A DNA stretch of 64,000 nucleotides from positions 2,880,001 through 2,944,000 of the forward strand of contig CBDCXR010000004.1 in NCBI GenBank assembly GCA_965223845.1. The letters are read 5' to 3'. Positions 1 to 50,143 of this stretch are shown one piece after another. The position numbers and the translations under genes are program-made. How positions within the stretch are numbered: the stretch's first letter is position 1; every line of letters starts with the position of its first letter. A model generated the notes under the pieces. The model was not told where the DNA came from. It searched no databases and worked only from the letters and a program-made list of their open reading frames with translations. This stretch comes from Planctomycetota bacterium (lineage in GTDB: Bacteria > Planctomycetota > UBA8108 > SXIK01).

Positions 1-1844
1 CCGACGAGCTCGTCTCGAAGTCCGTCGGCGCGCGCGCCCTCGTCTTTGCGGCCGGCGCGATCATGAACATCCTCTCGGCTTTCGTGTTCTTCATCATCGC
101 GTTCACGATCGGGGTCTCGTTCGACGCCCCCGAAATGGGGACCGTCGTCCCAGGTACGCCCGTGTGGAAGGCAGGACTCCTCCCGGGCGACCGAGTCCTC
201 GAGATCGACGATACTCCGATCCTGAACAGCATGAGTCTTCGCGTCGAGACCGCGCTCGGCGATCACAGCAAGCCGCGGCGATTCCGCGTCGCCCGCGGTG
301 AAGAAGAGCTCGAGATCGACGTTCAGGCGGAGTGGAATCCGGACGTCGGCGTGTACATGATCGGCGCACTGCCCGCACTCTCCGAGGCGCTCGACTCGCC
401 ACCCGACGGCTCGATAGCGAAGACGCTCGGGATTCAAAAGGGCGACCGCTGGGTGGGTGTCGAGGTGGACGGTGTCGCCATCGAAGATCGGCCGATGACG
501 CTGACGCGCATCCTCGCGACCCGCCGCACCTTCGATCGGGCGAGCGACACGAAGCTCATCGTCGAACGCGGAGGCGAGCGCCTCGTCCTCGCGCTTCCGC
601 CGAGTGAACCGGCGACGGCGGGACCGTCGCCGCAGATCGGAGTCGGGATCGGCTCGGAGTGGCTCGGCGGCGAGGTCGCGGTCGCGTTTCGGAGCGACGC
701 GCCGGCGACGATCACCGACACGTTCGCCACCGGTGATATCGTGTGGCTGGTGGACGCGGATCGGCGCGAACCGCTGAGCTGGTCCGCCGTTCTCCGGCGC
801 TTGGCCGGCGGCGCCGCAACGTCGGAGCTCGAGATCCTCGGCGCGAGCGGCGAAGTCGAGCGCGCGTCGCTCGAGACCCGTCTCCTGCTAGACAGTCTCT
901 TTCGCGGTGACGTTCACTGGCGCTCATTCAGCGAGCTGCTCGGTCCGATCGCGGAAGCCGACGTGCTCTACGGTCTCGGTTTTCGCAGCGGAGACGCGGT
1001 CATCGCACTCGGCGAGCAGAATTGCTACGCGAAGGGCGATTTCGCGCGCCACCTCGAGGGGGCGGGCGACGGCGACCTTGAAGTGACGGTTCTTCGCGGT
1101 CGCGAGCGCGTCGCGCTCTCGCTCGCAAAGAGCGCTGCCGCCGGCGTCGCAACACGGCTCGAGCAAACGATGCCGCCCCTCTCCGTCGTCAGCCCGAAAA
1201 GCGGCGCGGAGGCCGCCGGGCTGCGGCCCGGCGACATCGTCCTCGCCGTCGGAGGGTCGGCAGTGAAGAGCTGGACCGAGCTGCTCGACAAGATTCAGTC
1301 GAGCGGCAACGAATCGACCCTCTCGGTCGAGTGGCTGGCGCGATCTACGGACGTCTTCGAGCGGCGCAGTGCGAATGTCGAGCTGCGGCGGCCGTCCGCG
1401 CCGGTCGGACTGGCGACGCGTGGGAAGCGCATCGAGGTCAAAGGTTCCATCCTCGAGGCGATCGAATTCGGCGGCCGTCAGACGATCACGATGTCGAAGA
1501 CCGTGTTCATGACGCTCCGAAGTCTCGTCCGACGCGACGTCTCGGCGAAGAACCTCGCCGGTCCGATCGGCATCACCCAGACGCTGAAGGATGTGTCCGA
1601 ACACCGTGACTTTGCGTTCTTCGTCTACTTCCTCGCGATCATCAGCGTGAATCTCGGCCTCTTTAATCTTCTCCCGATCCCCGTCCTCGACGGCGGCCAT
1701 CTTCTCTTTCTCCTCCTCGAGAAGATCAAGGGGCGCCCCGTCGACATCCGTTACCAAGAGTGGGCGACGAACGTCGCGCTGCTTCTCATCCTCGCGCTGG
1801 CGGTGTTCGTCACGTTCAACGACGTCGCGCGAAACTTTCGTTGA
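1..1844 (+). CDS. rseP: RIP metalloprotease RseP / site-2 protease (M50) with multiple PDZ domains, 5'-partial
   Basis: Frame is open from the window edge (..ARALVFAAGAIMN..). PDZ-like repeats (AGLLPGDRVLEID, AGLRPGDIVLAVGG), LAGPIGI and NLLPIPVLDGGH motifs, C-terminal TM helices. Confidence 0.9.
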   Translation, partial: DELVSKSVGARALVFAAGAIMNILSAFVFFIIAFTIGVSFDAPEMGTVVPGTPVWKAGLLPGDRVLEIDDTPILNSMSLRVETALGDHSKPRRFRVARGEEELEIDVQAEWNPDVGVYMIGALPALSEALDSPPDGSIAKTLGIQKGDRWVGVEVDGVAIEDRPMTLTRILATRRTFDRASDTKLIVERGGERLVLALPPSEPATAGPSPQIGVGIGSEWLGGEVAVAFRSDAPATITDTFATGDIVWLVDADRREPLSWSAVLRRLAGGAATSELEILGASGEVERASLETRLLLDSLFRGDVHWRSFSELLGPIAEADVLYGLGFRSGDAVIALGEQNCYAKGDFARHLEGAGDGDLEVTVLRGRERVALSLAKSAAAGVATRLEQTMPPLSVVSPKSGAEAAGLRPGDIVLAVGGSAVKSWTELLDKIQSSGNESTLSVEWLARSTDVFERRSANVELRRPSAPVGLATRGKRIEVKGSILEAIEFGGRQTITMSKTVFMTLRSLVRRDVSAKNLAGPIGITQTLKDVSEHRDFAFFVYFLAIISVNLGLFNLLPIPVLDGGHLLFLLLEKIKGRPVDIRYQEWATNVALLLILALAVFVTFNDVARNFR

Positions 1845-13569: not shown

Positions 13570-14600
13570 GCGTCGTTTCCGTCCTCGCCCCCGTCAGCGT
13601 CTTCGGAGTCGTCGCCGAACGCACGGAGGAGATAGTGCCGGTACAGAATCCCGGCGGCCTCGTCCGCCGGATTGCTTGAAAGCTGAGAGAGCAGGATCCC
13701 GAGCCCCTCGTCGGCGCGATCCTTCGAGTGCAAATAGAAGTACGCCGCGACGAGCGGACGCGCACTCGCGTCGAGATCGGCGACTCGCTTCGCGTACGTA
13801 CCGTCGCCCGGAAAGTGCGAGCGAATGTCCCGCGGCAAGTACTCGGTGACGTCGTCGTAGCTCAGCGCTTCCTCGAGAAGAAGCTGCGCGTGCGCGGGTT
13901 TGTCGAGGGCGAAGAACACCTCGGCGAGTAGGAGGGGATAGAGCGGACTCCGGTCGCGCCGGAAGCGCTCGGCGAAGACGCGTCCGGCCGCGCGAAACTT
14001 CCCCGCCTTCATGAGGTCGAGACCCGGCTCGGCTCCGGTCTCGACGACGCGATTCTCGCGCGCCGCGCGCTTTGCGGCCGCGACGACCCCTTCGAAGGGA
14101 GGAAGGCGTACGTCGATGTAGGGATCCGAGTCGCCCGGTAGATCCGGGCCGAAGACGCCCCCGCGCCGGTAGACCTCGTACGTGTCGAGCCCGAGTGTGA
14201 GCGAGCCCTGCTCCGCGAGAGGATGGGGGTACTCGACGACGGTCGGCGGAATCCCCCACACCGGATGGAGTCCGTAGCCGTAACCGTAACCTCCGTAGTG
14301 CCAGGTCGGATACCTGACCGCACGTCGGACGAGCCCGCGCCGCGCGCGGAATCGGCCGGATCCCGTCGCCTCCGCGCTCCGCCCGATCGTCAGGCCACCT
14401 GGCCCGCGGACCACGCCGCGGCTCGGCGCGGCGGAAGGACTTGTGACGACGGGAGGGGTCGGCGTCGCTTTCGGCGCCGGCTTAGAAGGCGCGGCCTCTT
14501 GCGCCGAGAGCGGAGCGGACATCAGCACCCCGGCGATCACCGCCACGGACGCGATCGACGAGAAGGCGAAGACGTGAGGGCGGCCTTGGACCGTTCGCAT
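13566..14600 (-). CDS. Secreted hypothetical protein, Pro/Gly-rich N-terminus and TPR-like helical C-terminus
   Basis: GGAGG RBS, signal peptide ending LSA-Q, helical repeats in the C-terminal half. Confidence 0.65.
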   Translation of the reverse strand: MRTVQGRPHVFAFSSIASVAVIAGVLMSAPLSAQEAAPSKPAPKATPTPPVVTSPSAAPSRGVVRGPGGLTIGRSAEATGSGRFRARRGLVRRAVRYPTWHYGGYGYGYGLHPVWGIPPTVVEYPHPLAEQGSLTLGLDTYEVYRRGGVFGPDLPGDSDPYIDVRLPPFEGVVAAAKRAARENRVVETGAEPGLDLMKAGKFRAAGRVFAERFRRDRSPLYPLLLAEVFFALDKPAHAQLLLEEALSYDDVTEYLPRDIRSHFPGDGTYAKRVADLDASARPLVAAYFYLHSKDRADEGLGILLSQLSSNPADEAAGILYRHYLLRAFGDDSEDADGGEDGNDA

Positions 14601-14729
14601 GTGGAATCCTCCGTTGGAGTCCCGCAGTTCGCGCGGCGCGATCGCACGATCGTCGCGAAGCGAACCGAGACGACGAGCTACTCTGGGCTCTACTTCTCCT
14701 GCTCTCCCCCCCATTGTAAGGTGGGCGTC

Positions 14730-17700
14730 ATGGGGACTTCAAAGAAAGAGGCCCGTTCCTCGCGCGGACTTACGGCGATTTTGCTAGTCGCGATCGCGGC
14801 CGGGAGCGCGGCGATTCTGTGGTGGAATCGCCCGCCGACGGATTCCGCTCGTGACGTCGCCGCCCCCGGCCCAGTCGGCGAATCCGCCGCCGGCCGGCCG
14901 ATCGAAGCGCCCGAGTTCGAGAAGCTCCGCCGGCGCACGATTCCCGGTGCCGATCGTTTCGAAGTGGAGACTCTCGCCGCCGAACTGGCTCCGAAGATCC
15001 GCGCACTAGAGGCCGAGTGGCGGGATCTTCCCCGTGATCGTTCCAGCGACGACGCGTCAGACCTAGTGGCGCCGACGTTCCGGTGGACGGCGCAGCACGC
15101 GGACGCTCGCCCGGCGGCCAGCATGGCGGACGGACTTCGCGCGCTGCTCGGTCGAGGCGTGGAGTCGCTCGACCACGTCGCGCTCAAGATCGTCCGGGTC
15201 GAGCCCGTCACGGAAGGGGAACTCGCGACGGAGCTGCGCTTCGAGCTCGTGGTCCGTCCGAGCTCGGGCGCGCACGTGAGCTGGACGGGGCGGGCACGCG
15301 TCCTCTGGACGTCCGAACGCAAGATCCGCGGGTGGAAGACGCTGTCCGTCGACTCGGTCGAGACGACCGGCCCTTTTCTTCGCGATGTTTCCGCGGCCGT
15401 GCTCCACGCGAACGCCGTCTACCACCAAGTCCTCGCGCACGGGATCGACCATTTCCGGGACCGACTCGACGCCGCCACGGGGATCGACGTCTACGGACAC
15501 TACGGAATCGCGGTCGGCGACGCGAACTCGGACGGCCTCGACGATCTCTATCTGCCGATGCCGCCGACCGTACCGAATGTCCTTCTCCTCGGCCAAACCG
15601 ACGGAACGTTTCGCGACGCCAGCACGGAGAGCGGCGCGAACCTCCTCGACGGCACGACGCAGGCGCTATTTCTCGATCTCGACAACGACGGGGACGACGA
15701 CATCGTGGCCCTCCTCGACGCGGGCGCGTGCGTGCTCCGCGGCGATGGCCGCGGGCGATTTGCCGTCGTTCCCGACGCGATCAGCGCGGGGTCCGCGCGC
15801 GGCTCACCGATCACCGTCGCTGCCGCCGACTACGACGCCGACGGCATCCTCGATCTCTATGTCGGTTCCTACGTCTTCTGGCGCGACCTATCGGGCGCGG
15901 TCGGCTCGCGTCTCCCGACGCCCTACCACGACGCGCAGAACGGTGCCCCGAATCGACTCCTCCGCGGGCGAGGAGACGGAACGTTTGAAGATGCGACCGC
16001 AGTCGCGGGGCTCGGAACGGTACACCGATTCACGTTCGCGGCGAGCTGGGCGGATTACGACTCGGACGGCGATGCCGACCTCTACGTTGCGAACGACTTC
16101 GGCAGCAACCAGCTCTTTCGCAATCGCGGTGACGGCACGTTCGAGGACGTCGCTCGAGTCGCGGGAGTCGTCGACATCGGACCGGGGATGAGCGTCGAGT
16201 GGTTCGACTACGATCGCGACGGCGATTTCGACCTCTACGTCGGAAACATGTTTTCCGCTGCCGGGCAGCGCGTCACGAACGAGCGCACTTACAAAGCGGG
16301 ATCTCCGGATCTTCAGCACGCGTACCGGAGACACGCCCGGGGGAATTCGCTCTACCGGAATCGCGGCGACGGCACGTTCGAAGACGCGAGTGAGTTTGCG
16401 CGAGCGACGTTCGGCCGCTGGGCCTGGGCGAGCGGGAACGTCGATTTCGATCTCGACGGTCACGACGATCTCTACGTTCAAAACGGCTTCGTGAGCAACG
16501 CTCGCGGACGCGAGCTCTGAAGCTTCTTCTGGCGACAGGTCGTGTCGCAGTCCCCCACGGCCGCGGTCAAGATCCAGCGGTACGAAGACGGCTGGAACGC
16601 GATCCAGCGCATGATCCGCGAAGACGAGTCGTGGAGCGGATGGGAACGGAACTGCGTCCACCTCGCTCGCGGCGACGGGAAGTTCACGGACGCGTCGGCG
16701 GTGAGTGGAGCCGACTACGCGACGGACGGACGCGCGTTCGCCGTCCTCGATGTCGATCGCGACGGACGTCCCGACCTCGCGCTACGGAATCGGAACGCGC
16801 CGACGCTGCGGATCGTGCAGAACGTGTGGCCCAATCCCGGGAGGTGCGTGTGGCTCCACCTCGAAGGGAGCACCGGCAACCGGGGCGCGATCGGGGCAGT
16901 CGTCGAAGTTCGTGCGGGGAAGGACCGCAGAGTGATTCCCATGACCGCCGGCTCCCGATTTCTCTCGCAGTCGAGCCGATGGCTCCCGATCGGTCTCGGC
17001 GACGCGCCCGGAGAAGTCGCGATCGCCGTTCGTTGGCCGGGCGGACGAACGCAAGAGCTCGGCGAACTCCAGCCGGGACACCGGTACTGGATTCGTGAGG
17101 GGGAGAGGCCCCGCGGAGAAGAATTGTCCGCGCGGCGAGAGTACGCCTCGATCGAGCCGAGCGACGCGCCAAGGAAGACCGGAGTCGGCACGTGGCTCAT
17201 CGAGCGCATTCCCGCTCCCGACTTCGAGCTGAAGAGAGTCGGCAAGAGCGAAATGCTGAATCTTCGCGGTCTGCGCGGCGCTCCCGTGCTTCTTCATATC
17301 CTCTCGCCGACGTGTGCCGTGTGCGTCGCGGCAGCACCCGAGCACCGACGGATCGAGAAGATCGCGACGGACGCGGGAGCACAACTCGTCCACGCGATCG
17401 TCGCGCGCAACGATCAAGACGCCGAGGCAGAGCGAATCCGCTTCGTCGAAGGGGCAGGCTACGAGGCGCCGGCGGTCGCGGCGGACGACGCGTTCGTCGC
17501 GGCGTACAACGTGCTTCACCGCGAGATCTGGAATCGCCGTCACGACCTCGCCGTGCCGACGACGATTTGGATCGACCCGGGCGGCTACGTCGTCCGCGTC
17601 GATCGCGGTGCGCTCGATCCGGATGCCGCTCGAGCGATCCTCGCGCAGTTTCCGCGATCGCCGAAGGAGCTGAGGACGCTCGCGATCGGTGATGCGTCCG

Positions 17701-18584
17701 GACCACTCGTCTACCCGGAAGCGTTCAGACGAAATTTCGCGGCTCTGGGAAACGCTTACCGCGAGGCCGGCTTCCCCGAGCTCGCGCGGTCCGCGTTCGC
17801 AGAGGACGCCGCAAGATCACCGAAGAGTTCGAACGCCCGCTTCAACCTCGCGGTCGTCGCGGCCGAGAGGGGTGACACCGCCGCCGCGGAGCGCATCTAC
17901 CGGGAAGTGATCGAGTCCGGTGAGTACTCGGGCGATGCGAGGAACAATCTCGCCGTCCTCCTCGCACAGCGGGGAGAGACCGATGCCGCGCTCCGTCTAC
18001 TCGTCGATCTCGTTGCGGGGAATCCCGCGCACGGCGAGGCGCCGCTCAACCTGGCCGGCATCCATCTTCGTTCGGGACGCGCCGAAGAAGCAGTGAAGGT
18101 GCTCGAGTCTGCCGTCCGAACGGACCCCGAGTCGGCTCGCTTTCGTCGCCAGCTCGCCTACGCACGGTACTCGTTAGGCGATGTCCACGGCGCCGAACAG
18201 GATTACCGACGTGCGATCGAGCTCGATCCGCTCGCATCCGAGTCCTACCGCGATCTCACCGCGCTCATCTTCGCCCAGGGACGCGAGCGCGAAGCCGCGG
18301 AGCTCGCCCGTCGCGGGATCGCGGTCGCGGGCGAAACCGCAGCGCTCCGGAATGCACTCGCGCTCGCGGAGATCGCGATCGGCCGGACGGAGGACGGACT
18401 CAACGGACTCCGGCGCGCGATCGAGCTCGACCCAAAACTCGTCCCGGCCTACGTGAACCTGATCGCGCACCTCGACGACCTGGGTCGCGAGAGTGAAGCG
18501 ACGGAGAATCTCGAACGGCTGCGGACGATCTCGCCGGAGGCGGCGGCGAGGGTGAGGCGGCGGCTGCGTGAGAGTGGGAAGTGA
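14730..18584 (+). CDS. Putative selenoprotein: N-terminal TM anchor + FG-GAP repeats + ASPIC-UnbV + redoxin (CxxC) + TPR, with Sec at UGA 16518-16520
   Basis: ORFs 14223..16520 and 16542..18584 are in the same frame, separated by a single TGA (GREL-U-SFFWRQVVSQSP). FG-GAP repeats continue across the junction and a SECIS-like hairpin follows. Confidence 0.8.
16518..16550 (+). promoter_or_regulatory. Putative bacterial SECIS element
   Basis: TGA + 11 nt + GCGACA-GGTCG-TGTCGC, a 6-bp perfect stem extendable by CT/AG with a bulged G. The loop starts with G at +18. Confidence 0.72.
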
Positions 18585-20328: not shown

Positions 20329-21033
20329 TTGAAACAGGGAGTATCATCGCTCGATGAGAGGCGTCTTTCGTTTACACCTGAAGCCACTCTCCGAATGGGA
20401 CGATACGGATTGGTGTTGGACTTGCCTGACCAGATCAAGGAGACACCCACAAACCCTCCCGACGAGGCGATAGAAACGAAGCCCGAGCTCTGGCTCGATT
20501 GCTATGGCGACGTTCTCTTTCGGGACGCCATGGTGCGTCTCGGCGACCGAGCAGCGGCATCCGACGCCGTGCAAGAGACGCTGCTCGCCGCGCTAAGGGC
20601 CGTGCGGGAGGGGAAGTTCGACGGACGGGTGGAGTTTCGGCACTGGCTGAGGACGATTCTCCGTAACAAGGCGGTCGATCATGTTCGACGCCGAGTCCGC
20701 GAGCGCCCGCTCGACACGTCGGATCCCGAGGGAATGGGCGATACGCTCCTCTACAAACTGACCGGTGTGCCGACTAGAAGCCCGGAGAACTGGGCTTTCG
20801 ATCTCGAGATGGCCTTCGAGCGCGAAGAGTTTTGGGCGGCGTTCGAGTCGTGCATGTCCGGCTTGAGCGACGTCCAGCGTTCGGTGTTTACGATGAAGGT
20901 GATCGACGGCGTGTCGACGGAAGAGGTCTGTAACATCCTGAACGTCAACGCGAACAACATGGGGGTCCTTCTCCATCGCGCGCGTCAGGCCCTCAAGCGT
21001 TGCCTGGAAGGCAAATGGTTCGTCGCTGACTGA
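20329..21033 (+). CDS. ECF sigma-70 factor
   Basis: DAVQETLLAA, WLRTILRNKAVD, EVCNILNV..NNMGVLLHRAR. The real start may lie further downstream. Confidence 0.88.
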   Translation: MKQGVSSLDERRLSFTPEATLRMGRYGLVLDLPDQIKETPTNPPDEAIETKPELWLDCYGDVLFRDAMVRLGDRAAASDAVQETLLAALRAVREGKFDGRVEFRHWLRTILRNKAVDHVRRRVRERPLDTSDPEGMGDTLLYKLTGVPTRSPENWAFDLEMAFEREEFWAAFESCMSGLSDVQRSVFTMKVIDGVSTEEVCNILNVNANNMGVLLHRARQALKRCLEGKWFVAD

Positions 21034-44977: not shown

Positions 44978-46387
44978 TCAGTTCGGCGCGGCTTCGAATC
45001 CGCCGCACGCCGGTTGGCTCTCGCACGAGAGCGAATCTCGCGTGGGATCGCGGCCACACGCCGCTGCACCCGGTGCAGGCACCACGCGGCCGTCGAGAAA
45101 GAGCCAGTTGAGGGCGAAGATCGGATCGGAGAGCGTCACTCGTCCGTCGTCGTCGACGTCCGCAGCGTCTCTGCAGCCCGGTTCGTCTCCGTCCAGAAAC
45201 AACCAATTGAGCGTGTACAACGAATCGGAAAGAACGACCTGTCCGTCGCCGTCGGAATCCCCGCGCCGGAAGAGCGGTGAAGCGTCCGGGCGCTCGGTGA
45301 GCTTGGCGAGGTACTGCTCGGAGCGCGGGCCGCTCGTCCCGAAGACGACGTAGTCGCCGGCAGAAGTGAGCGCGAGAGATGGACTGCGGTCGACCTTCTC
45401 CGTGCCGAACACTTTCTCCCAGACGAGCTCACCCGCGGGATCCGTTCGGACCATGTAGAACTCCGTCGTGTCGAGTTCGCGAAAAATCGTCCATCCGACC
45501 GCCACGACCCCGCCGTCGGGAGCCGGGACGACCGAGCAGCCGCGAGCAGTTCCTGCTCCGGCGAACAACTTCTCCCAGACGACGTCGCCCCACTCCGGGC
45601 CGGTCCGGAGAACGAACATCGCTTCCGAAGCCGCAAATCCGACGACGACGAATCCGCCGTCCGGCATCTCCCGCACCGCCTTGCCGACGAATGGACGCCC
45701 TCGAGGGAACGTGGTCTCGCGCAGGAGCTCCCCCTCGCCGCTGACGAGGACAAGGTAAACACTGTCCCCGCGAGTGCCCGCGAGAATCAGATTCCCGTCG
45801 CGCGTCTCCTGGACCGAATTGACGGTGGAGTCCTCGTCGCCATCGTAGACCTCCTCCCAATGAAGGTCGCCGTCGCCGTCTGTCTTGGCGAGATAAGCGC
45901 GCCGATCCCGCGGACCATCGATCGCCGTCCGCCCGGCGACGACGTAGCCGCCGTCCGAAGTTTCGACCACGTCGAAGCCGGCGGTTTCCGCCTCCCGTTC
46001 GCCGATCCACTCCCACAGGAGCTCGCCGTCGCCGTCCGTCTTGAAGAGCCGCACGGCCAGCAGATCGTCCGCGCGGGGGATCGAGCCGCCGACAATAAAG
46101 CCGCCATCCGCGGTCTCGCGGACTCCCGATCCGGGGTAGAGCGGACCGTCGTAAGTCTTGGCCCAGACAATGTTCCCTTCGGAGTCCGTCCGAATTAGCC
46201 GCTCGCCGACGGCGATGAAACCCCCGTTCGTCGTGGGCTGCACGGTACCGTCGCCGTGGGAGATCCCGGGGCCGAGCCAGCGCTCCCATTCGACCTCCGG
46301 CGGCTCGGCCCCTCGAGCGGGTCCGCCGACGGTGACGAACGAGAGAACAGAGATCAGCCCGATCGAGTACGACCCGTGGCGAAACAT
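44978..46387 (-). CDS. Secreted beta-propeller repeat protein with dockerin-like tail
   Basis: Repeats T.DGG(F/Y)(I/V)V.G...(L/K)TD.DG.L.WE, then FRRGDSDGDGQVVLSD...CGRDPTRD. Confidence 0.82.
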   Translation of the reverse strand: MFRHGSYSIGLISVLSFVTVGGPARGAEPPEVEWERWLGPGISHGDGTVQPTTNGGFIAVGERLIRTDSEGNIVWAKTYDGPLYPGSGVRETADGGFIVGGSIPRADDLLAVRLFKTDGDGELLWEWIGEREAETAGFDVVETSDGGYVVAGRTAIDGPRDRRAYLAKTDGDGDLHWEEVYDGDEDSTVNSVQETRDGNLILAGTRGDSVYLVLVSGEGELLRETTFPRGRPFVGKAVREMPDGGFVVVGFAASEAMFVLRTGPEWGDVVWEKLFAGAGTARGCSVVPAPDGGVVAVGWTIFRELDTTEFYMVRTDPAGELVWEKVFGTEKVDRSPSLALTSAGDYVVFGTSGPRSEQYLAKLTERPDASPLFRRGDSDGDGQVVLSDSLYTLNWLFLDGDEPGCRDAADVDDDGRVTLSDPIFALNWLFLDGRVVPAPGAAACGRDPTRDSLSCESQPACGGFEAAPN

Positions 46388-46596: not shown

Positions 46597-46643
46597 AAAA
46601 AAACGTCCCGCGATCGGGCGATGGATCGCTCGATCGCGGGACG
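46597..46643 (-). terminator. Intrinsic terminator of the selenoprotein gene
   Basis: Minus strand CGTCCCGCGATCGAGCGAT-CC-ATCGCCCGATCGCGGGACG followed by a T7 run, ~40 nt after the TAG stop at 46683. Confidence 0.75.
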
Positions 46644-46682
46644 CAGCTCACCGGAGCCGGCGGCGTCGGATCGCCTCGGCGG

Positions 46683-48074
46683 CTACTCTTCGAGGAGCCG
46701 CTTCAGCTCGTTCTCGAGCTCTTCGAGCCCGACGCCGATCTTGTGGTACCGGACGTTTCCACTCTTATCGACGAGGAACGTGGTCGGATAGAACCGGACG
46801 CCGAACGCCGCGGCCTCGTCGGCGCCGCCCATGAGCACGGTTTGCTTGAGCTCCTTCTCCTTGACGAACTTCTCGACGACGGGTTTCGGATTCTCCCACG
46901 TGTGCACCGCGACGACTTCAACTCCCTTAGCCCGGTACTTTTCCCCAAGCTTGCTGAGGTGCGGAGCCTCCGCACGACAAGGTCCTCACCCGTAGCCCCA
47001 GAAGTTGAGGATGCTCACCTTGCCCTTTCGCTTGGCGGCGAAGTCGTAGTCGTGGCCCGCGAGGTCGGGAAGCTGGATCGCCGGAGCGGCGCGACCGAGG
47101 ACTTTCTTGAGCGCAGCCCCCTCGGCCGACGATTCGTAGAGTTGCGCGTAGGCGCGGACGCGACTCTCGAACGCCGCGGCGAGTGGTGCCACCGGCGTGT
47201 CCTCGGCCGACTTCGAGAACGTTTCGACGACCTTGGCGAGCTCGTCCGACGACGCGCTGCGGGTATCGAAGGAGGTTCCGATCGTCTCCGCCTTCGCGAG
47301 AAGCTCGGCCCACGCGGGAGCGGAATCCCCGGTGTAGGCGACCGAGCTCTTCGCGGCTAGCTTCAGCGTGCGATCGAGAACGACCGGATCGCCTCCGCCC
47401 GGCGAAAACTCGAAGCCGGCGTGATGCTCGATCGCGGCGATCACACCGTCCGTCCCGAGAACGTAACGCTCCGAGTATGCTCGGACGGTGGCTTCCTGAC
47501 CATTGAACGAGAAAACCGTATCCTTCCCGCCCGTAAGCTCGCGCGTGACAACGACCTGATCCCCGGACTTCTCGACCTTCGTCACGAGGTCGGCGGTCGC
47601 CCAGCCGACGTTCAAGACGTGGAGCGACTCGGTCGAGCGTGCGCTCGTCCCTTCGGCCGGAAGGGCCGCGAGCGGAAGCGCGAGCGGAAAAAACACGCCG
47701 AGCGTGTGGTTCTCGTCGCTCCCCGCGGTCTCGAAGTCGCGCGGCCCGTGGGGACGGAGCACGGTAGAGCCAGCCTTCCGGGACACCGTCCAATGTTCGA
47801 TCGCCCCCTGCCGGCCGTCCTCATCCTCGAGCACCCGCGCGGTGAGGAGCGGCGTCCGTTCGTTCGCAGAGCTCCCGGTGAGAAGCACCAGTGTCGCGTC
47901 GTACTCGACGTTGAGCTCGTTGTCGCCGTGTTTTTGCAGCAGGGTCGCCTTTCCGGCCAGGGTCGCGAGTCGGTCCGGCTTGAGCTCGAGCCCCGGCGCG
48001 GCACTCGTCGGCGAGGCGAGGAAGAGTGTGGCCACCACCGCGAGGGCGGCAGCGGCGGTCGACACCGGACGCAT
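46683..48074 (-). CDS. Putative selenoprotein: secreted TlpA/redoxin-family thioredoxin with UxxC active site (Sec at UGA 46988-46986)
   Basis: ...APAIQLPDLAG...KGKVSILNFWGYG-TGA-GPCRAEAPHL...YPTTFLVDKSGNVR. The downstream ORF 46683..46907 is in frame. Signal peptide from ATG 48074. Confidence 0.9.
46959..46988 (-). promoter_or_regulatory. Putative bacterial SECIS element
   Basis: TGA + 10 nt + GTGCGGA-GGC-TCCGCAC, a 7-bp perfect stem. Loop G at +18, the same spacing as the element at 16518. Confidence 0.8.
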
Positions 48075-48266
48075 AGCAGATTCTCCTTCTGGTAGAGTTC
48101 TCGGGGAAACGGGCTCGGCGGCGGCGAACGGCGCACCGACACACCAGCCCCGCAGTGTAACGGGAGAACGCGCGCGGCGGTAACTCGGTTCCCGCTCCGG
48201 CGCGGAAAACTGGTATCGTTCGGACGCGGACGACACGTTTGGATCCGTGCTGGCAAGGAGACCACA

Positions 48267-49043
48267 ATGAAGAGGGATGCGGCGGCCGAATTGGCCGGGA
48301 AGGTCGCACTCGTCACCGGCGGGAGCCGAGGGATCGGTCGAGCCATCGCTCAAGCCTTCCTCGAACGGGGTGCGAGCGTGGTCATCACGGGCCGTAAGCG
48401 CGAGTCGCTCGCCAGCGCTCAGGACGAGCTCCACGGGCTGGGTCTCCGGCAGATTCGGACGATCGAGGCGCACAGCGCCGACCCCGAGGCGATGGCGCGC
48501 GTCTTCGACGAAGCCGAGAGCGAGTTCGGAACGGTACAGGTCCTCGTGAACAACGCGGCGACGAATCCGGTGATGACTCCCCTCGCGGAAACCGACCTCA
48601 CGGTCGTCGACAAGATCCTCGCGACGAACGTGCGGGGATATCTGCTCGCGGCGCAGACCGCGGCCGGACGGCTGCGCGAGCACGGAAAGAGCGGGAGCAT
48701 CATCAACGTTTCGTCCGTGGCGTCCCGCCGGGGCTGGCCGGGTCTCGGCGCGTACAGCGTCAGCAAGGCGGCCGTCAACATGATGACGGAGGTCCTCGCG
48801 GCAGAGCTCGGTCCCGCCGGGATCCGCGTCAACGGGATCGCTCCCGGGCTCGTCAAGACGCGCTTCAGTCAGGCACTCTGGGGCGACGCGGCCGCAGCGG
48901 AAGGCGTGACGCAGCGACTCCCGCTCCGTCGACTGGGTGAGCCGACCGATATCGTCGGAGCTGCGGTCTTCCTCGCGTCGGACGCGTCCGCTTACATCAC
49001 CGGGCAGACTCTCGCCGTCGACGGCGGCATGCTCGTCGTGTGA
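48267..49043 (+). CDS. Short-chain dehydrogenase/reductase (DHRS4/FabG-like)
   Basis: TGGSRGIG, NNAATNP, YSVSK, IRVNGIAPG. Confidence 0.93.
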   Translation: MKRDAAAELAGKVALVTGGSRGIGRAIAQAFLERGASVVITGRKRESLASAQDELHGLGLRQIRTIEAHSADPEAMARVFDEAESEFGTVQVLVNNAATNPVMTPLAETDLTVVDKILATNVRGYLLAAQTAAGRLREHGKSGSIINVSSVASRRGWPGLGAYSVSKAAVNMMTEVLAAELGPAGIRVNGIAPGLVKTRFSQALWGDAAAAEGVTQRLPLRRLGEPTDIVGAAVFLASDASAYITGQTLAVDGGMLVV

Positions 49044-49075
49044 CGCCGCGCGCAACCCCGGCCGGCCGAGCGACG

Positions 49076-50143
49076 TCACCAGTCGGGGCGAGTCGTTTTC
49101 AGCTCGACCGCGAGCTCCGGACGAAGCGCGGCACCACCGCCGACGAACACCGCCGCGGCTCCCGCGGCGAAGAACGGTCCTGCGTCCTCGGCGCGGAGGA
49201 CGCCTCCGACCGCGAGCGTCTGAACGTTCAAGCCGAGGCGCCGCGAGCACTCCACCGCGCCGCGAACATTGTCGAGCGCTGGCTCGCCGACCCCGCACCC
49301 GATGATCCCCGCGCGTTCGTGCCCCGGAAACGCGGGTAGACCGTCGGCCGTGTGCACCCGGCGCGCGACTCCGTTCACGATGACGACTCCGTCCGCGGCG
49401 CCGTCCACCGCACGGTAGAAAGCTTCGAGGCGCTTCGGATCCGCGAAGTGACCCGCCTTGATGAGGAGAGGCGTCGACGGGAGCGCGTCGCGAAGCGCAA
49501 GCGTGAGCAGTCCGCTCGACTCAGCGCTTTGGTAGATGCTCCCCTCCGCCGAGCAGACATTCGGACAGGAGTAGTTCGCCTCGACGATGTCCGCCCCCGC
49601 CGCCGCGGCTCGTCGCGCACAGTCGACGTAGTCCGCGACGAGTGCATCGAATCCGCCGTCACCGGGGGTGCCGACGACGCTCACGATGAGGACTTGGCCC
49701 GCACCGAGAGCCGCCTTCGCTCGCCCGACGTCTCGCGCCCACTCTTCGGGTGGCATCGACGGCATCCCGAAGCACACCGACGACGTTGTCCGAAGCGGAT
49801 CGCGAGGCGCGCGAGCGCTCACGACGAGCGGGACGTCCGCATCCGCGGCTCCGAGCCCCTCGGGAGGGAGGTCGACGTATACCCAGTTCGGCAGCGGATA
49901 ACAGGGCCGAGCCGCGCTCCGCACCGATTTGTATGTGAGGAGGTCGAATCCCCAACGAGCGTAACGCTCCACCCAGCGCGAGTTGAGGAGGATGCCCGCG
50001 GCGATCCCGAATCGGGAGGCGACCGAGAACCCGAAAAAGTCCTTTCGCGGCGTCTCCGGGACAGAGGGCGCCTCATCGGGAAGCTGCGGTCCGTTCTTGT
50101 AGTTCCAGAGGTAGCTGCGATCTCGCCGGTAGGAATTGGGCAT
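49076..50143 (-). CDS. Dihydroorotate dehydrogenase-like FMN oxidoreductase
   Basis: FGIAAG, TYKSVRS, EANYSCPN, LAVGGV. Confidence 0.75.
   Translation of the reverse strand: MPNSYRRDRSYLWNYKNGPQLPDEAPSVPETPRKDFFGFSVASRFGIAAGILLNSRWVERYARWGFDLLTYKSVRSAARPCYPLPNWVYVDLPPEGLGAADADVPLVVSARAPRDPLRTTSSVCFGMPSMPPEEWARDVGRAKAALGAGQVLIVSVVGTPGDGGFDALVADYVDCARRAAAAGADIVEANYSCPNVCSAEGSIYQSAESSGLLTLALRDALPSTPLLIKAGHFADPKRLEAFYRAVDGAADGVVIVNGVARRVHTADGLPAFPGHERAGIIGCGVGEPALDNVRGAVECSRRLGLNVQTLAVGGVLRAEDAGPFFAAGAAAVFVGGGAALRPELAVELKTTRPDW

Follow-up and report, generated by a model that had tools for sequence, protein, structure and literature searches.

A gene on the reverse strand of a Planctomycetota bacterium was predicted to encode a selenoprotein. 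It occupies positions 46683 to 48074 of the window, the 64,000-nucleotide stretch that was analyzed (assembly GCA_965223845.1, contig CBDCXR010000004.1, positions 2,880,001 to 2,944,000). According to this prediction, which was judged from sequence comparison to have a probability of about 0.85, the UGA at codon 363 is read as selenocysteine (Sec) in a TlpA/ResA-type active site. A preliminary description of the window had already proposed a Sec residue in a UxxC, TlpA-like domain. The proposal was supported by the existence of homologues with Cys at the same site, by the presence of TGA in 13 of 14 related loci, by the preservation of the reading frame after the TGA, and by a covarying hairpin.

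In-frame UGA and the thioredoxin-fold domain

The in-frame TGA (46988..46986) lies in the context KVSILNFWGYG-TGA-GPCRAEAPHL. It falls inside the motif FWGYG-U-GPC, so that the open reading frame (ORF) stops at the first Cys position of a TlpA motif, as had been noted before. After the TGA, 100 further codons, including FYPTTFLVDKSG, remain open up to the TAG at 46685..46683, which confirmed the earlier statement that the thioredoxin fold continues in frame to this stop. The terminator reported to follow the TAG was also recovered. Its stem (46644..46597) had a folding energy of -35 kcal/mol (z-score -6.56, equaled by 0 of 200 shuffles) and is followed by seven T. This structure was found by folding; a simple scanner had missed it, as the loop exceeds 8 nt. 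The preliminary description had drawn the interrupted frame as ORF 46986..49298; its stop position was correct, while its extent was not. The longer ORF is a mechanical frame, the first 1.2 kb of which overlap a short-chain dehydrogenase/reductase (SDR) gene on the opposite strand (48267..49043); therefore, the true start is 48074, which the same description had given as the boundary of the gene.

The alignment that had been suggested as a check, with UGA translated as U, placed both Pfam Redoxin (PF08534; E value 8.3e-21, 74.8 bits against a cut-off of 26.6) and Pfam AhpC-TSA (PF00578; 2.3e-20, 73.2 bits against 26) on amino acids (aa) 327-452 of the read-through protein, above the curated cut-offs and across codon 363. 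The best solved relative of aa 326-463 was ResA (4nmu_A; 2.6e-20). In this comparison U363 fell on the first Cys in the CxxC of ResA, and PTTFLVDKSG aligned to PTSFLIDKDG. The NCBIfam equivalog models all scored below their cut-offs (ResA NF002854, 83.8 bits against 170; DsbE, 48.4 against 123; StoA, 46 against 210; TlpA, 42.7 against 230), and the protein is therefore orthologous to none of these. None of the NCBIfam selenoprotein models reached its cut-off for the window protein. Among them, the model of WAxxUGC ResA-like selenoproteins (NF041054) gave 30.2 bits against 300, and the motif found here is FWGYG-U-GPC, not WAxxUGC. The window contains 1376 TGA triplets, all of which were scanned, and 199 of them lie between open frames. 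Only two of these 199 combined coding-type composition in both flanks with a hairpin of the selenocysteine insertion sequence (SECIS) type, and one of the two was codon 363.

Relatives were collected with HMMER in an exhaustive search that used aa 1-325 as the query and yielded 27 proteins (numbered with P), including the 362-aa ORF of the window itself (P0002). A word-indexed protein search with the N-terminal domain (N-domain) returned the window's own ORF and no relative. Among the 26 relatives, 21 stop at FW[GA]xx, one residue before the position of the first Cys, and three, which look like frameshifts or fragments, end at other places. The remaining two, P0029 (460 aa) and P0034 (476 aa), are full-length.

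Genome contigs were then scanned with a 12-row family alignment, which gave 30 loci (numbered with L; L001, for example, sits on OZ244999.1). Sixteen of them matched the thioredoxin part only and were set aside, and 14 encode the N-domain. The named sources of these 14 were all Planctomycetota metagenome-assembled genomes (MAGs), and the family appears to be restricted to Planctomycetota as far as it was sampled. The aligned codon was TGA in 13 of the 14 loci and TGC in one (L014). In 11 of the 13 TGA loci, a stop was reached some 110 codons past the TGA, with the frame open in between, and L009 and L011 run off their contigs. The Sec-form alignment consisted of the window and 12 loci, with L011 left out because its contig cuts it short. 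The motif in these 13 sequences was U-G-P-C in 12 (11 loci and the window) and U-G-A-C in one, and the Cys366 codon was TGT in 11 and TGC in two. Cys-containing orthologs, which the preliminary description had recommended looking for, could be found in P0029, P0034 and L014, all three of which carry C-P-P-C at the aligned position. Sec forms thus outnumber Cys forms in the family. One MAG, JACQVW01, contained both a Sec form (L008, U-G-A-C) and a Cys paralogue (L014, C-P-P-C), located in different neighborhoods. The N-domains of divergent genomes were only 20-32% identical to that of the window. A maximum-likelihood tree of 32 N-domains required two changes, in two places, for the three Cys forms, and nested P0029 among the Sec forms with a support of 99/90.

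Downstream hairpin and alternative readings of the UGA

The perfect 7-bp hairpin that had been recognized after the UGA (GUGCGGA-GGC-UCCGCAC, 46975..46959) was found again. It begins 10 nt after the UGA, and its loop follows the UGA at a spacing of 17 nt. The seven perfect pairs had a folding energy of -11.0 kcal/mol, which 5 of 200 shuffles equaled or exceeded in stability, and the 23-nt hairpin stretch folded with a z-score of -2.75. The constraints on bacterial SECIS elements, as given in the accessible part of a 2026 review (PMC13188914), are an apical loop of 3-9 nt (here 3 nt), an upper stem of 4-16 bp (here 7 bp), at least one G in the first two loop positions (here GG), a spacing of 16-37 nt from UGA to loop (here 17 nt) and a minimum free energy of -7.5 kcal/mol or lower (here -11.0 kcal/mol). 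The hairpin falls within all of these published constraints.

Standard pairs were present in 91 of 91 cells of the Sec-form alignment (seven pairs in 13 sequences). One pair covaried as AU in seven sequences, GC in five and CG in one, and a second as AU in 12 and GC in one. The observed pairing or covariation score was reached by 0 of 500 shuffles, and pairing dropped to 33-55% when the partner was slid by 1-3 columns. RNAalifold returned the same helix from the 13-sequence alignment. The covariation couples position 2 of codon +5 after the UGA, a non-synonymous site, to a synonymous one, the third position of Pro +8, with the codon combinations AGG/CCC, AAG/CCT and GCG/CCG. Arg +4 was CGT and Ala +7 was GCT, each in 13 of 13 sequences; other conserved fourfold and sixfold sites mostly used two to four codons. 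The Cys locus L014 encodes the peptide CRTEAPYL with other codons and without the hairpin (-4.7 kcal/mol, z-score +2.2). As L014 keeps the peptide without the hairpin, the amino acids do not force the structure.

If the UGA were a true stop, the gene would produce only a 362-residue N-domain protein, and the thioredoxin half would either go untranslated as a remnant or form a small gene of its own. Gene callers annotate the locus in this manner, since P0002 has 362 aa and 21 relatives end at the same point, and termination at a UGA probably competes with Sec insertion, more so when selenium is scarce. A remnant would decay, yet about 110 codons remain open and conserved in 11 of the 13 TGA loci, which come from divergent genomes. 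A stop at this point would also divide the thioredoxin fold within its active site, so that the 36 residues preceding the motif would belong to one product and the resolving Cys to another, and it would leave no role for the synonymous-site constraint and the covarying hairpin after the TGA. A true stop was thus considered improbable, and a comparably low probability was assigned to read-through that inserts one of the standard amino acids Trp, Cys, Gly or Arg under a reassigned code or by a near-cognate or suppressor tRNA. Such read-through would equally keep the downstream frame under selection, and the Sec machinery is known from no gene in the window. However, the homologous residue is the catalytic Cys, which makes the classic Sec/Cys pair, and the spacing, the loop size and the G residues of the loop fit the SelB-dependent SECIS model in the form available from the review cited above. 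Moreover, TGA is the ordinary stop of many window genes (for example, at 1842..1844, 21031..21033 and 44980..44978) and is also the stop of the family gene in L001, L005, L006 and L007; a reassigned code is therefore excluded, and global UGA reassignment was rejected on the TGA stops of many genes in the window and the loci. A recent pseudogene, or an error of sequencing or assembly, would require that TGC or TGT, each one base away from TGA, was mutated to or misread as TGA in this genome alone. Thirteen loci that were assembled independently have the same TGA, and 21 ORFs in the database end at that spot, which makes the chance of such an event close to nil.

Several observations weigh against decoding of codon 363 as Sec. 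The genes selA, selB and selD and a tRNA-Sec were not found within the 64-kb window, which contains no tRNA at all, and no tRNA-Sec was detected in the 14 N-domain loci, which were scanned for tRNAs only. The protein and locus sets overlap (L008, for example, is P0015), and L003, L004, L005, L007, L010, L012 and L013 form a group of near-identical or closely related sequences; therefore, there are fewer independent lineages than the raw counts suggest. The covariation amounts to a small number of changes in sequences that are related to one another, and one of the two pairs varies in the window alone. The contrast with the Cys form is that of a single DNA sequence (L014). Wider contexts of the hairpin folded unremarkably (z-score -0.81 for 40 nt and 0.18 for 101 nt). 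Rfam gave no match in the whole window at gathering thresholds, and around the site at E values up to 10 it gave two chance-level matches to unrelated families. The signal peptide, which bears on the proposed export of the product, was called by eye.

Indirect points in favor concern the organism. The gene content of the window was planctomycete-like, with PSCyt1/2, PSD1, DUF1501, sulfatase and FG-GAP/ASPIC genes. The available part of a previous survey (PMC4807772) describes complete Sec-insertion gene sets in several Planctomycetes, and its Table S9 names split 'thiol-disulfide isomerase-like thioredoxin' and split 'ASPIC/FG-GAP' genes as selenoprotein candidates in planctomycetes.

N-terminal domain and proposed function

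The preliminary description had called the N-terminal part of about 300 aa unrecognized and beta-rich, and both statements held. For aa 26-325, no Pfam family was matched at E values up to 1 by any of 32 members, no NCBIfam model matched, and the family profile, when compared with PDB sequences, aligned only over roughly the first 35 residues of the thioredoxin part. The structure prediction that had been proposed was performed with AlphaFold2 (AF2) on a 32-row alignment of the N-domain and reached a predicted local distance difference test score (pLDDT) of 92.5 and a predicted template modeling (TM) score of 0.90. The model runs through five long strands, two short helices, seven strands and four helices, in which about 12 long strands enclose the two short helices. 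A single-sequence AF2 model of the full protein was discarded (pLDDT 42). Based on this confidently predicted fold, aa 26-325 may be regarded as a new domain of about 300 residues with a barrel-plus-helices architecture.

Structural comparison of the model using Foldseek revealed that the seven best PDB matches were all large lipid transfer proteins (LLTPs), namely the apoB-100 barrel, MTP, lipovitellin and vitellogenin. The E values ranged from 2.4e-7 to 1.8e-4 with a probability of 1.00, the query-normalized TM-scores (TMq) from 0.38 to 0.46 and the root-mean-square deviations from 6.7 to 18.9 Å. LolA structures were weaker matches (E value 2e-4 to 1e-3, TMq 0.15-0.20). A language-model search placed the Vitellogenin_N cluster first (score 0.83, at the level of a lead), and the cluster did not recur when a second family member was used for the search. 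The Vitellogenin_N profile PF01347 matched neither the window protein nor the 32 aligned members at E values up to 1. Given the modest TM-scores, the likeness to the LLTP module is taken as a lead and not as membership. The likeness is suggestive because MTP, according to the part of PMC6717300 that was available, acts in complex with the thioredoxin-fold protein PDI, the active sites of which face the helical domain of MTP; the same source describes the MTP barrel as 13 strands around a helix. It is nevertheless rather unlikely that the N-domain is a true bacterial relative of the animal LLTP barrel-plus-helix module, fused to a thioredoxin-fold partner in an echo of MTP-PDI. LolA-like homology was not supported by profile comparison with a LolA-like/peroxiredoxin fusion, which aligned the thioredoxin part only.

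With codon 363 decoded as Sec, SelB and tRNA-Sec would read the UGA with the aid of the hairpin 10 nt downstream, which would serve as the bacterial SECIS, and the product would be a single 463-residue protein directed to the periplasm. The N-terminus resembles a signal peptide, the residues after MRPVSTAAAALAVVATLFLASPTSA beginning with APG in the frame from ATG 48074, and the product thus looks like an exported one. The enzyme would be a TlpA/ResA-type thiol:disulfide oxidoreductase with Sec as the attacking nucleophile (U363-G-P-C366). By analogy with the family, after export Sec363 may attack a substrate disulfide or another oxidized sulfur, Cys366 may form and resolve a selenenylsulfide with Sec363, and a membrane electron or thiol shuttle may reduce the Sec363-Cys366 pair again. 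The barrel-plus-helices domain most likely binds a substrate or a partner, and it may determine substrate specificity, as the preliminary description had suggested. Under selenium shortage, termination at the UGA probably gives some 362-aa product.

Gene neighborhood, comparison with known systems and significance

The positions of the gene elements and of the adjoining genes are given in Table 1.

Table 1. Elements of the predicted selenoprotein gene and adjoining features (window positions)
Feature	Position	Strand	Details and basis
Whole gene	46683..48074	-	463 codons and TAG stop; codon 363 is UGA, predicted to be read as Sec; Pfam match crosses the UGA
Ribosome-binding site AAGGAG	48083..48088	-	8 nt 5' of the ATG; sequence reading
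Start codon ATG	48074..48072	-	Sequence reading
Signal-peptide-like N-terminus, aa 1-25 (MRPVSTAAAALAVVATLFLASPTSA)	48000..48074	-	No lipobox Cys; by inspection; hydrophobic N-termini alike in homologues
N-terminal domain, aa 26-325	47100..47999	-	AF2 model; 26 relatives
TlpA/ResA-like thioredoxin-fold domain, aa 326-463	46686..47099	-	Predicted active site U363-G-P-C366; Redoxin, AhpC-TSA and ResA 4nmu_A matches
UGA codon 363, proposed Sec	46986..46988	-	TGA in 13 of 14 related loci
TGT, Cys366, putative resolving Cys of UxxC	46977..46979	-	Cys invariant in 13 of 13 Sec-form sequences
SECIS-type hairpin	46959..46975	-	7-bp stem, GGC apical loop; pairing in 13 sequences; folding energy
Stop codon TAG	46685..46683	-	Sequence reading
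Intrinsic terminator	46597..46644	-	Long stem, then T7; folding, -35 kcal/mol
SDR oxidoreductase, 258 aa	48267..49043	+	Divergent, conserved neighbor; adh_short_C2, 5.7e-64; genomic context only
DHO_dh-like gene	49076..50143	-	Adjoining in the window, L003, L007, L008 and L010

The SDR had its best NCBIfam match in a glucose 1-dehydrogenase subfamily (272 bits). An SDR gene occupied the same position in all seven Sec-form loci that were scanned with Pfam (L001, L002, L003, L007, L008, L009 and L010), and four more loci, not Pfam-scanned, had an ORF of its size and place. The Cys-form locus L014 had neither the SDR nor the DHO_dh-like gene and showed other neighbors. Small genes for secreted cytochrome c'-type proteins with a C-terminal CxxCH were located directly after the Sec-TlpA gene in L001 (4336..4797, forward strand) and L002 (4288..4752, reverse strand), the latter with a Pfam Cytochrom_C_2 match; neither the window nor any other locus showed such genes. 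These two neighbors are a weak hint of a ResA/CcmG-like role. The neighborhood does not fix a substrate. Downstream of the terminator, a gene on the reverse strand (44978..46387) encodes a 469-aa protein with a signal peptide, repeated DGG[FY] units and two C-terminal D-rich repeats (DSDGDG and DVDDDG), for which no Pfam or NCBIfam match was obtained.

A second candidate for a recoded UGA was observed on the forward strand of the window, at TGA 16518..16520 within a gene spanning 14223..18584. In the context GREL-TGA-SFFWRQVV, this TGA splits an FG-GAP ORF from a same-frame ORF with FG-GAP, UnbV_ASPIC, Redoxin-like (CAVC) and TPR regions. It is followed by a hairpin (16532..16548, GCGACA-GGUCG-UGUCGC), the loop of which lies 17 nt past the TGA, the same spacing as at codon 363. 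The presence of this second site is an indirect point in favor of Sec decoding at codon 363. Locus L005 shares the second TGA, and 33 of the next 35 nt are identical to those of the window, though the proteins are 38% identical. Among 120 unsplit homologues, the residue aligned to this TGA was N in 75, S in 19, A in 15 and C in one (P0037, the closest match); of the other ten, three were unaligned, two had E, two G, two M and one Q. The second TGA is therefore not at a conserved catalytic Cys. In the first 2 kb or so of L003, L004, L005, L007, L010, L012 and L013, an FG-GAP/ASPIC/TPR gene comes to its end right in front of the SDR gene that adjoins the Sec-TlpA gene (Pfam was run for L003, L007 and L010). 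The two candidate selenoprotein genes are thus less than 3 kb apart in those loci, with the other TGA at 11..13 in L005, and 28 kb apart in the window.

UxxC selenoproteins of the TlpA/Prx-like kind have long been known (PMC1794560, Table 1; PMC13188914, Table 1; both sources in the parts available), and the principle is therefore not new. Like those proteins, the one predicted here has an AhpC-TSA/Redoxin domain with Sec in place of the first Cys of CxxC, Cys homologues, and a SECIS-type hairpin just downstream within the coding region. Unlike them, it carries this domain as the C-terminal third of a putatively secreted 463-aa protein, behind a family-specific barrel-and-helix domain of about 300 aa, in a family where Sec forms dominate and the named members are all from Planctomycetota. 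ResA, TlpA and CcmG (DsbE) (4nmu, 1st9, 1jfu, 1kng) are closest to aa 326-463; they share the landmarks FW..C..C...P.L and PT.F..D and are exported, whereas the window protein is predicted to have Sec for Cys and bears the extra N-domain in place of a membrane anchor. The WAxxUGC selenoproteins of NF041054 are similar in their ResA-like fold and in a Sec in the active-site region, and are set apart by the low score reported above, by the motif (here FWGxG-U-G-P-C) and by their different architecture. Like the LLTPs, the N-domain model appears to arrange its strands (about 12-13 in these proteins) as a barrel that surrounds short helices, with further helices after it. The differences are the lack of sequence similarity, TM-scores below 0.5, four helices in place of a large solenoid, and the absence of lipid-binding sheets. 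The fusion of a LolA-like (DUF2092) domain with a peroxiredoxin-type domain in P0005 ('peroxiredoxin/outer membrane lipoprotein-sorting protein') resembles the present protein in having a secreted, beta-rich, carrier-like domain ahead of a TlpA-like domain. It differs in its CxxC in place of UxxC, and no similarity between the N-terminal domains could be detected by profile comparison.

A search of the literature, in the portions of the sources that were accessible, gave no description of the fused family, and its members may already have been counted under generic TlpA-like headings. As far as these searches show, the two-domain architecture, the uncharacterized N-domain, the dominance of Sec forms, the restriction to Planctomycetota and the absence of a curated model are new. 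The finding does not change the understanding of Sec decoding or of UxxC enzyme function. If the N-domain were indeed kin to the LLTPs, the protein would be a periplasmic redox enzyme that handles lipids or lipoproteins using selenium, and a module thought to be animal-specific would have a prokaryotic root. The SECIS-type element is compact and very clean (7 bp, GGC loop, fixed 17-nt spacing), and compensatory variants as well as Cys-form controls exist in nature, which makes it useful for training selenoprotein finders. The family, if read as predicted, adds a selenoprotein family of new architecture to Planctomycetota, a phylum in which selenium use has been little described. At present, it is stored as domainless 'proteins' of about 360 aa (the window entry and 21 of the 26 relatives), and a putative secreted redox clade is therefore invisible in annotation; recognizing the family would let annotation pipelines join both halves.

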